DNA of 64,000 nt from Acutalibacteraceae bacterium (GTDB taxonomy: Bacteria > Bacillota > Clostridia > Oscillospirales > Acutalibacteraceae). The notes below the pieces were generated by a model. It was given only the letters and a program-made list of their open reading frames with translations. It made no database searches and had not been told where the DNA came from. Below, in pieces: positions 2,286-33,585 of this stretch. The position numbers and the translations under genes are program-made. The DNA lies in contig JAZQGF010000005.1 in assembly GCA_045539875.1 (NCBI GenBank), positions 46,341 to 110,340 of the forward strand. The letters are read 5' to 3'. Position 1 is the first letter of the stretch, and the number at the start of each line of letters is the position of its first letter.

Positions 2286-3464
2286 ATGATTTATATTAAT
2301 GAAATAAATGCGGCAGGCAAAATTGCCGTAGACGATACAATCCTTGTAAAGGGTGCTCCTGCTACCGCAGGCTCAAAAATGCTTGAAAACTTCAAGCCTC
2401 TTTTCAGCGCAGAAGCCGTTGAAAGACTTGAAAAGGCAGGCTATGCAATCACAGGCAAAACAAATGTCGGCGAATTCGGTCTTGACCTTCTCGGCGAAAC
2501 CTCATATTTCGCACCCGAAACCGAAAACGGCAAGCTTGTAGGCGCAGCAGCATCGCTTGTTGCATCGGGCAAGGTTAAGGCAGCTCTCAATGTTGATCTT
2601 AACGGTGCACCCAGACGCGCAGCAGCCGTTTCGGGCGTTGATTTCATAAAGCCCACCTATGGCACTGTTTCACGCTACGGCATTATCGCATGTGCATGCT
2701 CAGGTGAACAGATAGGCGTTACCGCCGCAACCGCAGAGGATGCAAAGGAAATCCTCACCGTTATCGCAGGGCACGACAGCAAGGACGGCACAAGCCTCCC
2801 TGCCGAAAAATACGAATACTCAACAGACGAAGATGTTGCTGCAATGAAAATCTGCATCATCAAAGAGCTTTATGACGCCGCAAGTGCAAAGGTTAAGGCA
2901 AATATTGACGCATATGCAGAAGGTCTTAAGAAAAACGGTGCAGCGGTTGAAACCGTTTCGCTTGATATCGTTTCACAGGCACAGACCGCATGGCAGATTC
3001 TTATGGCAGCCGAAACCACTAACAATCTTTCAAGATTTGACGGCGTTAAATTCGGCTACAGAACTCCCGAATACAAAAATATTGACGAGCTTTATATCAA
3101 GAGCCGTTCTGAATCGATGGGCTTCCTCTCAAAGGCAACTATCATCTACGGTTCGGATGTTCTTGCAAAAGCAAAATACGAAAAATGCTACGATAAATCT
3201 CTCCGTATGCGCCGCATAGTATGCGACAAGGTCAGAGAAGCGCTCGCAAAATACGATGCAATTCTCTCCCCCGCATGCTCACAAACAGGCTATGCTCCTT
3301 ATGATACAGCAGATGCATTTGAAAAGGTTTTTGAAGAAAGTCTTTTCACTGCAATCCCCTCAATCACGGGTATGCCTGCAATGGTAACAAAGGGCGTTCA
3401 GCTTATCGCCGATTCATACAAAGAGAGCGTTCTTCTCAGCATCGCAAAAAGCGCGGAGGTGTAA
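2286..3464 (+). CDS. gatA: GatA-like amidase-family subunit, N-terminally short, catalytic triad degenerate
   Basis: GSKMLENF, GKTN.GEF, KPTYGTVSRYG, NNLSRFDGVKFGYR; lies between aspS-gatC and gatB. Confidence 0.9.
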   Translation: MIYINEINAAGKIAVDDTILVKGAPATAGSKMLENFKPLFSAEAVERLEKAGYAITGKTNVGEFGLDLLGETSYFAPETENGKLVGAAASLVASGKVKAALNVDLNGAPRRAAAVSGVDFIKPTYGTVSRYGIIACACSGEQIGVTAATAEDAKEILTVIAGHDSKDGTSLPAEKYEYSTDEDVAAMKICIIKELYDAASAKVKANIDAYAEGLKKNGAAVETVSLDIVSQAQTAWQILMAAETTNNLSRFDGVKFGYRTPEYKNIDELYIKSRSESMGFLSKATIIYGSDVLAKAKYEKCYDKSLRMRRIVCDKVREALAKYDAILSPACSQTGYAPYDTADAFEKVFEESLFTAIPSITGMPAMVTKGVQLIADSYKESVLLSIAKSAEV

Positions 3465-3467
3465 ATA

Positions 3468-4877
3468 ATGAAATACGAACTTGTTATAGGTTTGGAAACT
3501 CATGTTGAACTTTCCACCGATTCAAAGCTTTTCTGCTCCTGCGGCGGTCATTCAAGCCCCAAGGAGCCCAACGACTGTGTATGCCCTGCCTGCAGCGGCA
3601 TGCCCGGCATGCTCCCCGTAACAAACAAGCACGCAATCGAGCTTGCAGTCAAGGCAGGCTTCATGCTCAACTGCCATATCAATCAATACACAACCTTCGA
3701 TAAGAAGAGCTATTATTATCCCGACCTTCCCTGCGCTTATCAGATTACTCAGTGGTTCAACCCCATCTGCGTTAACGGCAGCGTTCAGATTGGCGACAGA
3801 ACAATCGGCATCAAGCAGATTCATGTTGAAGAGGACGCAGGCAAGCTTGTTCACGATGAAGCAACCAACACCTCTTTCGTTGACTTCAATCGCACCAGCG
3901 TTCCCCTTATTGAAATCGTAAGCAGACCCGATTTCCGTTCGTCGGACGAGGTTATCGCATATCTCAAGAAGCTCAAGTCAAGCCTTCAGTTTGCAGGCAT
4001 TTCCGAATGCGAAGAGGGCGCAATGAGATGCGATGTTAACATTTCGGTGCGTCCCGAAGGCTCAAACGAGCTGGGCGTTCGTTCCGAAATCAAAAACATG
4101 AGCTCGCTTTCCGAAATCAAGGATGCAATCGAGTTTGAAAAGGTCCGCCATGTTGACGCTATTGAGCGCCACACAGAAATGCTTGTTCAGGAAACTCGCC
4201 GCTGGGACGATGTTAAGCGCCGCACCTTCCCCATGCGTAACAAAGAAACCGCAGCGGACTACAGATATTTCCCCGACCCCAACCTCATGCCCATCGTCAT
4301 TGATGACGAATGGCTTGCAGAAATTAAGGCAAGCATGCCTGCAACTGCAGAGGAAAAGAGCAGCTACTACGAAGAAATGGGTATTGCTGCAAAAGAAGCA
4401 TCCGTTCTCGCTTCCGACAGAAAGCTTGCCGATATGTTTGATGCCGTTGTTGCAATGGGCAGAAGCCCCAAAACCGTTGCGAGCTGGATTCTCACCGAAT
4501 GCATGGGTCAGATGAAGCGTCTTGAACTCACATCTCTTGACATTGATGCCGCAAAGCTCGGCAGAATCATTGAGCTTGTTGAAAGCGGTGAAATCACCCG
4601 TGCCGCAGGCAAAAAGGTTCTTTCGGCAGTGTTTGAAAACGATGTTGATGTTGATAAATTCTGCGAAGAAAACAACCTTAATGCAAAGATTGACGACAGC
4701 TTCATTCTTGACACGGTCCGCCGTGTTATCGGAGAAAACGACAAGGCTGTTGCCGACTACAAGAGTGGCAAGGTCAAGGCTATGCAGTCAATCTTCGGCT
4801 GCATAATGAAGGAGCTTAAAGGCAACGGCGACCCCGCAGTTATCAGAGAGCTTCTTGAAAAGGAACTCAATAAATAA
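3468..4877 (+). CDS. gatB: Asp/Glu-tRNA amidotransferase subunit B
   Basis: IGLETHVEL, EEDAGK, PLIEIVS, RCDVNIS, EIKN, DYRYFPDP, YqeY-like tail. Confidence 0.97.
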   Translation: MKYELVIGLETHVELSTDSKLFCSCGGHSSPKEPNDCVCPACSGMPGMLPVTNKHAIELAVKAGFMLNCHINQYTTFDKKSYYYPDLPCAYQITQWFNPICVNGSVQIGDRTIGIKQIHVEEDAGKLVHDEATNTSFVDFNRTSVPLIEIVSRPDFRSSDEVIAYLKKLKSSLQFAGISECEEGAMRCDVNISVRPEGSNELGVRSEIKNMSSLSEIKDAIEFEKVRHVDAIERHTEMLVQETRRWDDVKRRTFPMRNKETAADYRYFPDPNLMPIVIDDEWLAEIKASMPATAEEKSSYYEEMGIAAKEASVLASDRKLADMFDAVVAMGRSPKTVASWILTECMGQMKRLELTSLDIDAAKLGRIIELVESGEITRAAGKKVLSAVFENDVDVDKFCEENNLNAKIDDSFILDTVRRVIGENDKAVADYKSGKVKAMQSIFGCIMKELKGNGDPAVIRELLEKELNK

Positions 4878-4883
4878 ATATTA

Positions 4884-4922
4884 ATATGCCGACACAAAAT
4901 CTGTGTCGGCATATTTTATTTT
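4884..4922 (+). terminator. Intrinsic terminator
   Basis: ATATGCCGACACA-aaatc-TGTGTCGGCATAT followed by Ts after gatB. Confidence 0.8.
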
Positions 4923-30252: not shown

Positions 30253-31908
30253 TTATTTCCATGAAGATTTGAGGTCAACCGTTCTGTTGAAAACAAGCTT
30301 TTCATCGGTTGAAGTTTTATCAACGCAGAAATAGCCCTGTCTCATAAACTGGAAGGTATCGCCGCGTTTTGCATTGCCGATTCCGCCCTCAACAAGGCAA
30401 CCTTCAAGAATTTCAAGCGAAGCGGGGTTGAGATGAGTGAGATAGTTTTCTTTACCGTCTGCCATGGGGTTTTCGGCATTGAAAAGACGGTCATAAAGAC
30501 GGATTTCACAAGGAACACTGTCGTTACCGCTGACCCAGTGAATTGTGCCCTTAACCTTTCTGCCGTCGGGAGCTTCGCCGCCCTTGGTTTCGGGGTCATA
30601 GGTGCAGTGGAGGCAGGTGATTTCTCCGTTTTCATCGGTTTCCCAGCTGTTGCAGGTTACGAGATATGCGCTCTTGAGACGAACCTCGTTTCCGGGGAAG
30701 AGTCTGAAATATTTTTTCGGAGGCTCAACCATAAAGTCGTCACGCTCAACGAAAATTTCTCTTGAAAAATGAACGGTTCTTGTGCCGAGTTCGGGCTTGA
30801 GAGGATTGATTTCAACCTCAATTGCCTCTGTCTGACCTTCGGGATAGTTGTCGATAATAACTTTAAGAGGACGGAGAACAGCCATTGCTCTGGGAGCGTT
30901 CTCATTAAGATTATCTCTTACACAGGCTTCAAGCAGACCGTAATCAACAACGCTGTCTGCCTTTGAAACGCCGATGCGGTTTATGAATTCACGCACCGCA
31001 GCTGCAGGATATCCTCTTCTTCTCATACCGCTGAGAGTAATCATTCTGGGGTCATCCCAACCGTCAACGGTTCCATTCTGCACCATTGCAAGATTGTATC
31101 TCTTGCTGGTTACGCAGTAGTTGAGGTTAAGTCGAGCAAACTCAATCTGTCTGGGGGGCTCTTCAAAGCCGATTTCGTTGATAAACCAGTCATAAAGAGG
31201 TCTGTGATTTTCAAATTCAAGAGAGCAGAGTGAATAGGTTACGCCTTCCCTTGCATCCGAAAGAGGGTGAGCAAAGTCATACATGGGATATACGCACCAC
31301 TTATCGCCCGTCTGATGGTGAGTAACATGAGCAATTCTGTAGATAACAGGGTCACGCATATTGATGTTGGGCGATGACATATCAATCTTCGCACGCAGAG
31401 TTCTTTCGCCGTCTGCAAATTCACCTACCGTCATTCTTGCGAAAAGGTCAAGGTTTTCTTCAACCGAACGGTCTCTGTAGGGGCTGTTTTTGCCGGGCTC
31501 GGTGAGAGTGCCTCTGTATTCTCTGATTTCATCAGCAGAAAGGTCGCATACATATGCCTTGCCCTTCTTGATGAGCTTGATTGCGCATTCATAGATGAAA
31601 TCAAAATAGCTTGATGCATAAAGAACCTTGTTCCACTTGAAGCCAAGCCATTCGATATCCTCTTTTATCGCATCAACATATTCAACATCCTCTTTTGATG
31701 GGTTGGTATCGTCAAGACGGAGGTTGCATTCGCCGCCGTATTTCTCCGCTGTGCTGAAGTCAATGCAGATAGCCTTTGCATGACCGATGTGAAGATAGCC
31801 GTTGGGCTCGGGCGGGAAACGGGTCTGAACACGGGTGTTGACACCGGCAGCAAGGTCCTCATCAATAAAGTCATATATAAAATTTGAGGTGGTTTTAATT
31901 TCGTCCAT
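30253..31908 (-). CDS. glnS: Glutamine-tRNA ligase
   Basis: [42 protein letters not shown]. Confidence 0.97.
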
Positions 31909-31923
31909 GGTGGGTACTTCCTT

Positions 31924-33585
31924 TCAGTTTAAGCTTTCAAGTGTCTTTGTAAGTCTTGCCTTGATTTCATCTTCGCCGAGAAGATTCATTATTGAATAAA
32001 GGTCGGGAGTATTCTTTCTTGAGGTGAGGGCGATTCGGATAACGGTTGAAACATCGCCGACATGGCCCTTGAATGCCTCGGGATTCTTCTTATATTCCTT
32101 AACATTCGGAGTGAAGCCGAGAGGCTCGCACATATCCTTGATTCTTGCAAACCATTGGTCCTTATCGTCTGCAAGCGAGAATTCGCCGAGATATTTTTCG
32201 ATTATCGCCGCCGCGTCATCCTTTGAGATGTTTTCGGGCATGGTGTAATCGGGAGCATAAATCTCATTATAAAGATAAGAGAAATATTCCTTAACCTCGC
32301 TCCATTTTGCAATGTCTTTTCTGGGCTTGGGATTCTCTCTGTCAATGTTGACGGCAGCTGTTGAGAATTCGGGGTCTGCCGTAAAGAGATTATAAAACTC
32401 AGGGTCATAGACCTTTGCCCATTCGGCAATATTATCGTAAACCTGCTGAGCATTCATAACCGAGATAACATTCTTGCTGACATCGTTGAGCTTTACGAGG
32501 TCAAAAAGGCAGCCGCTGGAGCTCATCTTTTTGAGGTTGAAGGGGAATTTTGAGATATCCTCCTTCGGATTTGCTCTGCGCCAGTCCTCAAAGTTGGAGT
32601 TAAGAAGAGTGAGAAGATATTCAAGCACGCTCTCCTTCGGGAAGCCCTGCTCAAAGAAATAGCTGACTGCCGCTTCGGGATCTTTTCTCTTTGAAAGCTT
32701 GCGCTTGTCGCCTGTTTCTTCATCTATTTTGAGAACCTGCGGAGTATGCGCAAACTTCGGTAGCTTATAGCCGCAAACTCTGAAAAGCTCGATATGCTTG
32801 GGAACGGATGAAATCCATTCCTCGCCGCGGATAACATGAGTTGTTCTCATGTAGTGGTCATCGCAGGCGTGGGCGAAATGATATGTGGGAATTCCGTCGG
32901 ATTTGAGAAGAACCTCGTCAATTATGTTTTCGGGCATCTCGATTTTGCCTCTGATAACATCCTCGAAAACGATTTTTTTATCTTCGCTGCCGCCTGAACG
33001 CAGACGGAGCACCCAGGGCTTGCCGTCGGCTATATTCTTTTCGATTTCTTCATAAGAAAGATTGCGACATTTTGCCCATTTTCCGAAATAACCCCAGATA
33101 AGAGCGTCGCCCTGTTCCTGCTCCTTGCGAAGCTCGGAAAGCTCGTCCGCCGTGCAGAAGCAGGGATAAGCAACTCCCTTTTCAACAAGACTCTTTGCAA
33201 CAGTCTGATAAATCTCGGCACGCTTGCTCTGAGTGTAAGGTCCGTATGCGCCCTTTTCGGTTCCGAAGCCTGTTACGCCTTCGGTAAATTCAACGCCGAA
33301 ATAATCAAAGCCGTTGACGATTGCGGAAACGCCGTCATCAATTTCACGCTTTTTATCTGTATCCTCAATTCTGAGGAAGGAAACGCCGTTTGTTGTTTGA
33401 GCAGTCAGCACATCAACAAGAGCGCTGAAAAGTCCGCCGATATGGAGATAGCCTGTGGGCGACGGAGCAAATCTCGCTACTCTTGCACCTTCGGGGAGTC
33501 CTCTTTCGGGATAAATCTCCTCATAATAATCAGGAGTTTTGTCGATGTGAGGAAAAAGAAGCTCCGCTAATTTTTTATTATCCAA
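31924..33585 (-). CDS. gltX: Glutamate-tRNA ligase
   Basis: RFAPSPTGYLHIG, LRIEDTD, KLSKR; probable TTG start after GAGGTG. Confidence 0.95.
   Translation of the reverse strand: MDNKKLAELLFPHIDKTPDYYEEIYPERGLPEGARVARFAPSPTGYLHIGGLFSALVDVLTAQTTNGVSFLRIEDTDKKREIDDGVSAIVNGFDYFGVEFTEGVTGFGTEKGAYGPYTQSKRAEIYQTVAKSLVEKGVAYPCFCTADELSELRKEQEQGDALIWGYFGKWAKCRNLSYEEIEKNIADGKPWVLRLRSGGSEDKKIVFEDVIRGKIEMPENIIDEVLLKSDGIPTYHFAHACDDHYMRTTHVIRGEEWISSVPKHIELFRVCGYKLPKFAHTPQVLKIDEETGDKRKLSKRKDPEAAVSYFFEQGFPKESVLEYLLTLLNSNFEDWRRANPKEDISKFPFNLKKMSSSGCLFDLVKLNDVSKNVISVMNAQQVYDNIAEWAKVYDPEFYNLFTADPEFSTAAVNIDRENPKPRKDIAKWSEVKEYFSYLYNEIYAPDYTMPENISKDDAAAIIEKYLGEFSLADDKDQWFARIKDMCEPLGFTPNVKEYKKNPEAFKGHVGDVSTVIRIALTSRKNTPDLYSIMNLLGEDEIKARLTKTLESLN

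Follow-up and report, generated by a model that had tools for sequence, protein, structure and literature searches.

Within a 64,000-nucleotide (nt) stretch of the genome of an Acutalibacteraceae bacterium (GenBank assembly GCA_045539875.1, contig JAZQGF010000005.1; hereafter the window), a short operon on the forward strand carries a T-box-like leader, a fusion of aspS to gatC, a homologue of gatA, gatB and an intrinsic terminator. GatCAB is a glutamine-dependent amidotransferase whose glutaminase and transamidase are coupled by a 30 Å tunnel, and the operon shares with canonical GatCAB its three parts, their gene order, the GatA fold, an equivalog-level GatB and a GatC-like peptide. It differs in that its GatA lacks the catalytic triad, the Gly/Ser loop, the Arg and Asp that bind glutamine and an N-terminal segment; in addition, GatC is fused to aspartyl-tRNA synthetase (AspRS) and GatB carries K89C among other changes. 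We refer to this short, triad-less form as gatA* (protein, GatA*). A preliminary description, made from the sequence alone, had proposed that GatA* is a structural pseudo-enzyme and that its GatB uses free ammonia or an amide donor encoded elsewhere.

The glutaminase site of GatA*

The gatA* gene (2286–3464, + strand) encodes 392 amino acids and was annotated from Pfam and NCBIfam matches, alignment to Staphylococcus aureus GatA (2df4_A), predicted fold and the ratio of non-synonymous to synonymous substitution (dN/dS). Its product belongs to the amidase family (PF01425, 174.8 bits) and reaches 256.4 bits with the GatA equivalog model TIGR00132, about half the cut-off of 481.1, the match beginning at model position 62. 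Mapped residue by residue onto the S. aureus protein, all three members of the triad are replaced. Lys79 becomes D16 (2331–2333; AVDDT versus GIKDN). The loop GGSSGGS (S. aureus residues 152–158) reads GKLVGAA, with a 7-residue deletion immediately before it, so that cis-Ser154 becomes L84 (2535–2537). The nucleophile Ser178 (PMC2330236) becomes A108 (2607–2609; NVDLNGAPRRAA versus GSDTGGSIRQPA).

The losses extend beyond the triad. In yeast, R334 and D418 hold the glutamine (PMC4027206); their S. aureus counterparts, R358 and D425, are T285 (3138–3140) and S352 (3339–3341) in GatA*, so the substrate site has been lost along with the chemistry. T175 and Y309 are likewise replaced, by L105 and W236. 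About 63 N-terminal residues are missing, residue 14 of GatA* pairing with residue 77 of 2df4_A. The motifs KPTYGTVSRYG (122–132) and NLSRFDG (247–253) are retained, and the GC content of the gene (0.47) is that of its neighbours (0.46–0.49). The alignment thus bears out each of the sequence features first described, namely the altered VDDT, GKLVGAA and Ala108 sites, the absent N-terminal region and the surviving KPTYG and SRFDG motifs. Because GatA* lacks the triad and the glutamine site and falls short of the equivalog score, we file it as a GatA-derived pseudo-glutaminase subunit and not as GatA.

Several lines of evidence indicate that the protein has nevertheless been maintained. First, an AlphaFold2 model built on a 96-row alignment has a mean pLDDT of 96.8 and superimposes in Foldseek on the GatA chains of 3H0L, 2DF4, 4WJ3 and 3KFU with TM scores of 0.92–0.93. 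Second, median dN/dS among eight members of the genus (pairwise Nei–Gojobori) is 0.10 for gatA*, indicating strong purifying selection, with 0.07 for gatB and 0.07 for aspS-gatC. Third, the substitutions are not private to this genome but recur in genus relatives, in 80 species-level genomes and in distant protein clusters.

More than 100 clusters in the protein database are 88–93% identical to GatA*; all comprise 392–393 amino acids and, where NCBI names them, they are called ‘hypothetical protein’. The 80 species-representative genomes, whose gatA* genes are 74–92% identical to that of the window, are recorded as Acutalibacteraceae, Oscillospiraceae or ‘Clostridia bacterium’ metagenome-assembled genomes (MAGs) from the colon, caecum or rectum of goat, sheep, deer, cattle and buffalo. 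In 53 of these 80 loci aspS-gatC, gatA* and gatB are all whole and free of frameshifts; most of the other 27 are cut at contig ends or were overlooked by the start-motif search. An exhaustive search of 50%-identity representatives, metagenomic clusters included, returned dozens of short (~360–420 amino acids), triad-less GatA-like proteins. In three distant members the gene lies in a gatC-gatA*-gatB or aspS-gatC-gatA* operon whose gatC is a separate gene, so dead GatA is older and wider than the AspRS–GatC fusion. No description of a dead or pseudo GatA was found in the one paper collection to which our literature search was limited.

Conservation within this family separates what was lost from what was kept. 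Of 72 columns at least 90% conserved among 66 canonical GatA representatives, half (36) survive in 31 short, triad-less representatives and the other 36 do not. Among those lost are the triad, the Gly/Ser loop, T175, Y309, R358 and D425; PTYG.VSR.G, AE..NL.R.DG, D104 and G107 are among those kept. Within the old nucleophile loop, D104, G107 and R110 of GatA* are conserved, and the nucleophile position itself is Ser in two genus relatives (G036 and G039) and Thr in a third (G019), as might be expected if GatA* were still a hydrolase, working through a reorganized catalytic set or on some other amide donor. We consider such a hydrolase improbable: the nucleophile is Ala in the GatA* of the window, no member retains Lys79 or cis-Ser154, the residues at the R358 and D425 positions are replaced and unconserved across the family, and among the residues specific to the family (D16, R111, N246, some Gly and Ala) there is no Ser, Cys, His or Lys from which an alternative triad could be formed. 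By these comparisons GatA* is very probably glutaminase-dead. Its proposed standing as a structural pseudo-enzyme is well supported by the joint loss of triad and glutamine site, the intact predicted fold, purifying selection and the sharing of the changes among relatives.

Further-reduced GatA-like genes also adjoin gatB in the genus, as open frames of 348 amino acids (locus L035, G007:C66) and 302 amino acids (L036, G029:C31), one of which has the entire nucleophile loop deleted. In another genome, G001, the AspRS–GatC and dead-GatA arrangement occurs twice, on contigs C47 and C16 (L029 and L039), with a single GatB match.

Operon partners and the T-box leader

Upstream of gatA*, the aspS-gatC fusion (166–2274, + strand) encodes 702 amino acids: an AspRS (residues 1–579), a Gly/Ser/Ala linker and a GatC-like tail. 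The AspRS is of bacterial type, with a GAD domain (NF001750, 744.6 bits), and has the motif RDHGG, in contrast to the RDLG of a second, housekeeping AspRS encoded in a hisS-aspS pair on contig C35. A His at this position is a mark of non-discriminating enzymes, known from work on Pseudomonas aeruginosa and Helicobacter pylori, and the fused AspRS is a candidate of that kind. The tail (residues 626–695, 2041–2250) matches PF02686 at 31.3 bits and TIGR00135 at 38.9 bits and is the sole GatC match in the genome. A bifunctional protein that joins AspRS and a GatC domain, in that order, in a single chain is already known as NCBIfam NF009460 (PRK12820). The present fusion scores 432.6 bits with that model against a cut-off of 1379, and its best stretch ends at residue 579, before GatC; it is probably an independent fusion.

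Downstream, gatB (3468–4877, + strand) encodes a full-length protein of 469 amino acids with GatB_N and YqeY domains (PF02934, 360 bits; PF02637, 112.7 bits) that exceeds its equivalog cut-off (NF004012, 557.6 bits versus 338) and is the only GatB in the genome. The preliminary description had called it normal-looking. Its sequence carries changes tied to its partner: comparison of 11 GatB proteins encoded beside dead GatA with 10 beside canonical GatA reveals the fixed differences R79K, K89C, G144S and Q228H. Cys89 (3732–3734) turns PDLPKAYQ into PDLPCAYQ; the residue is Lys in every GatB adjoining canonical GatA and Ala or Ser in the distant partners of dead GatA. In the GatB of S. aureus and H. 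pylori this Lys is residue 88 and lines the ammonia tunnel. The fixed changes could reflect a tunnel that has been re-tuned or abandoned, or a surface on which another protein docks. In the GatB relatives nearest to this genome, a conserved CKMQEG stretch (C--EEG; residues 181–184 of the product of 3468–4877) is short by two residues, both of which the more distant GatB partners of dead GatA retain.

The predicted complex of GatA*, GatB residues 1–295 and the GatC tail (605–702) scored 0.95, as against 0.87 for a control with GatB swapped, and so speaks neither way on binding. Conserved gene order and selection suggest that GatA*, GatB and GatC may assemble. An intrinsic terminator, identified by terminator scan as a 14-pair stem followed by a T-run (4883–4915, + strand), closes the operon. 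Contigs of a single gut metatranscriptome, which come from relatives, are available as contigs only and are open to DNA carry-over, are 90–95% alike over 29 of 30 bins; one of them, subject to the same caveat, spans the aspS-gatC/gatA* junction.

The operon begins with a T-box, as first described, although an atypical one lying mostly outside the window (locus L004, positions 1100–1424). The window itself holds the 3′ part (1–122, + strand), with the T-box sequence at ~55–74, which contains UGGC, a hairpin at 86–117 and a T-run at 118–122; the terminator scan identifies the hairpin as the antiterminator/terminator. Stem I and the specifier loop (C-AAC-A) lie 4–120 nt upstream of window base 1 (L004:1185–1302, with AAC at 1296–1298). 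The Rfam T-box model RF00230 misaligned the stem I part and gave 43.9 bits (E = 5.8e-8), below its gathering score of 93, so that a scan at the gathering threshold returned no T-box in the leader and the match appeared only in an E-value scan. The hallmarks of a T-box are present all the same: the T-box sequence has UGGN, there is an alternative terminator, and in stem I a purine comes right after the specifier codon. The leader is found in conserved form in 14 genomes of the genus, and in 13 of them GGCAACAC does not vary. In the predicted fold C-AAC-A stands directly above the stem I base helix UUGAAG/CUUCAA, and the T-box UGGC is a match to the discriminator G73 of tRNA(Asn). Read in the register that this fold gives, the specifier would be AAC, for asparagine; in the divergent leader of G019 (L045) it is not confidently readable.

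In another member of the Clostridia, Clostridium acetobutylicum, an asparagine-responsive T-box reportedly precedes a second AspRS gene and those of an amidotransferase: a 2012 JBC paper by Saad et al. is said to describe its T-box-controlled aspS2-gatCAB. To our knowledge, no dead GatA has been reported from that operon.

Asparagine supply in this genome and its relatives

The assembly that contains the window comprises 3.0 Mb in 39 contigs and is 87.7% complete. The gatA* gene is its single amidase-family gene, and no second gatA, gatB or gatC was found in it. It encodes asparaginyl-tRNA synthetase (AsnRS, 630.9 bits) and glutaminyl-tRNA synthetase (GlnRS, 755 bits), the latter by glnS in the same window (~30259–31830, − strand), so Gln-tRNA does not depend on the operon. 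A GluRS-like gene (32818–33477, − strand) lies ~1 kb past glnS at higher coordinates. There is no match to the asparagine synthetase gene asnA in the assembly, and the best asnB match reaches 18.5 bits. The genome checks proposed in the preliminary description thus recovered asnS, and no second gatA, asnA or asnB.

Such gene content is already recognized as the mark of tRNA-dependent asparagine synthesis (PMC4206432). Bacteria with AsnRS and without AsnA or AsnB that make asparagine on tRNA include Bdellovibrio, Legionella and Deinococcus–Thermus (PMC4206432). The present genome shares with them, and with the organisms of the Asn-transamidosomes of Thermus thermophilus (3KFU) and P. aeruginosa (4WJ3), an AsnRS, a GlnRS, an extra AspRS, an amidotransferase and the lack of an asparagine synthetase; it differs in the covalent link between AspRS and GatC, in the dead glutaminase and in its tRNA(Asn), discussed below.

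The distribution of the operon suggests what it does. Among 61 genomes of the genus searched for asnA, asnB, GatB and the amidase family, the dead-GatA operon occurs in 26 and asnA in 33, and the two are almost exclusive: 25 genomes have the operon without asnA, 32 have asnA without the operon, one (G060) has both and three (G009, G022 and G007) have neither. AsnA would thus fill the same metabolic slot, although it is an unrelated enzyme that makes free asparagine rather than asparagine on tRNA. In G007, which also lacks AsnRS, the 348-residue GatA-like gene beside gatB is of a more degenerate form. In G060 (G060:C16:103625–104413 and G060:C59:104056–106050) the asnA match is a short, 276-residue open frame covering model positions 49–322, and the gene is possibly being lost.

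None of the 26 operon genomes (71–98% complete) has a canonical GatA, which argues that a glutaminase-competent GatA has not simply been lost by binning. Canonical GatA (448–509 bits) with GatB does occur in five other genomes of the genus, all of which also carry asnA. When genomes are ranked by AsnRS identity to this one, operon-type and asnA-type species interleave at 87–94%, which suggests several switches between operon and asnA rather than a single split; this reading follows the AsnRS ranking of related genomes, which are not independent samples. The asnB gene is no clean marker, an AsnB-family gene lying above the cut-off in the operon genomes G004 and G047. A divergent second AsnRS, 54–55% identical to the main one, stands beside an AsnB-family gene in three genomes (G004:C43:1700–4668, G047:C28:1451–4419 and G022:C1:1310–4278), in what looks like an asnB-asnS2 cassette.

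The relatives that lack AsnRS provide the best single argument that the dead-GatA enzyme works. In G001 (96% complete), G019 (98%), G005 (89%), G021 (85%) and G007 (96%) the AsnRS search returned nothing above ~117 bits, and these weak hits are LysRS and AspRS paralogues. None of the five has asnA. The first four carry the dead-GatA operon and G007 the degenerate form; in those four, Asn-tRNA(Asn) has no visible source other than the dead-GatA amidotransferase.

An operon that is a decaying remnant, or that serves another end such as a second AspRS while asparagine is imported from the gut, would fit two facts: the AsnRS of this genome would allow life on imported asparagine, and GatCAB is thought to be vestigial in some bacteria (PMC4206432). 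It would leave unexplained a dN/dS of 0.10 with no frameshift in the 53 whole loci, a distribution that mirrors asnA, relatives that need the operon for want of AsnRS, and control by an Asn-type T-box. We regard decay or another function as very improbable. Comparative genomics instead lends good support to a working tRNA-dependent asparagine pathway, and the operon very probably makes Asn-tRNA(Asn).

The source of nitrogen

We propose that the four elements (T-box leader, AspRS–GatC, dead GatA and GatB) act together as a single unit that makes asparagine on tRNA(Asn). A shortage of charged tRNA(Asn) would lead the T-box to let transcription proceed; the fused, probably non-discriminating AspRS would load Asp onto tRNA(Asn); and GatB would phosphorylate and then amidate Asp-tRNA(Asn) to Asn-tRNA(Asn). 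GatA*, unable to hydrolyse glutamine or asparagine, would be kept as a structural partner for GatB and GatC. Because the glutaminase-site residues of GatA* are all lost, the nitrogen must come by another way than glutamine, and would enter as free NH3/NH4+ from an ammonia-rich hindgut, by way of what is left of the GatA* pocket and tunnel, or at GatB itself.

Four considerations favour free ammonia: the ammonia-rich hindgut habitat, the exchange with AsnA, the absence of donor candidates from the assembly and data on the yeast mitochondrial amidotransferase. The asnA product that alternates with the operon is itself ammonia-dependent (PMC4206432). Yeast GatFAB shows that a GatA/GatB-type enzyme can amidate with free ammonia, 20 mM NH4Cl bypassing its glutaminase in vitro, and the rate with NH4Cl rose after a truncation that, in the authors' view, destabilizes the GatA site (PMC4027206); that case differs in being an in vitro bypass of a live glutaminase rather than a natural dead GatA. 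Free ammonia is, with modest confidence, the probable donor, and the whole chain, from dead GatA scaffold through working asparagine pathway to free ammonia, is on balance just probable.

Archaeal GatD serves GatE as an asparaginase-like partner, and here too the enzyme could work with ammonia from another protein docking on GatA* or GatB, whether a free-standing glutaminase of class I, a partner resembling asparaginase or the fused AspRS. Docking of this sort, or a relay, could be a role for the Asp/Glu and Arg conserved where the active site once was, and a 2020 paper by Chew et al. in FEBS Letters reportedly concerns, according to its title, glutaminase activity of a mycobacterial non-discriminating AspRS. 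Searches of the assembly for asparaginase (PF00710, PF06089) and glutaminase (PF04960) genes found none. The terminator closes the operon right after gatB, upstream of gatA* the three distant relatives have just gatC or aspS-gatC and downstream gatB or an incomplete gene, and no conserved extra neighbour was seen. A donor protein of this kind appears unlikely.

Four observations weigh against free ammonia reaching GatB through an inert scaffold in this organism. First, the former active site does not drift freely. Among 71 representatives without Lys at the Lys79 position, 53 have an acidic residue there (Asp in 36, Glu in 17), and Gln181 is replaced by Arg in 71%; since former active-site residues are conserved (Asp/Glu 16, D104, G107, R110 and R111), the GatA* pocket may still do something.

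Second, the assembled tRNA(Asn) is unexpected. Bacterial GatCAB is reported to need a tRNA(Asn) with U1–A72 (PMC2330236, PMC4206432), and among 547 genera surveyed, all that rely on GatCAB for asparagine have it, including all 18 that have AsnRS without AsnA or AsnB (PMC4206432, Table 2). Both tRNA(Asn) genes of this assembly (C1:66–141 and C17:66–141) have G1–C72 instead, as do tRNA(Asn) genes in 19 other genomes of the genus, operon-type and asnA-type alike. A second tRNA(Asn) with U1–A72 and the same anticodon (GUU) and discriminator is present in five other operon genomes (G004, G017, G019, G059 and G062) and in one genome with canonical gatCAB (G069); it was found neither in this assembly nor in any of 29 GatB-less genomes. 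Its copies always lie near contig ends, as at L195 (G019:C65), L197 (G017:C122) and L198 (G069:C146). The U1–A72 tRNA(Asn) may be the true substrate, unassembled here, or GatB may accept G1–C72.

Third, K89C replaces a tunnel-lining Lys of GatB, which could mean that the tunnel has been abandoned. Fourth, all the genomes are MAGs, and because this one is incomplete to the extent given above, a donor enzyme could lie on an unbinned element.

The first of these observations could also be read as a rebuilt GatA*, in which an acidic pocket (Asp/Glu at Lys79, with the retained D17 and D104), joined by the family-specific Arg111, captures NH4+ from the cytoplasm and passes NH3 to GatB, so that the tRNA amidotransferase would depend on ammonia by nature. 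We hold this as a tentative suggestion, as we do its corollary that GatB K89C and a dedicated U1–A72 tRNA(Asn) co-evolved with the pocket. If it were true, all decoding of Asn codons in the AsnRS-less relatives would rest on a glutamine-independent enzyme.

What the family offers is a large natural group of proteins that keep the GatA body without its chemistry. If GatA* is indeed a scaffold in an ammonia-fed enzyme, coupling of glutaminase to transamidase would be dispensable in ammonia-rich habitats, and the family would provide a natural system for studying the route of ammonia into the tunnel and the functions of GatA beyond hydrolysis. Annotation pipelines would then misjudge asparagine metabolism in many uncultured gut Clostridia, NCBI naming the protein ‘hypothetical’ and others perhaps calling it an active GatA, which would bear on the prediction of amino-acid auxotrophy from MAGs.

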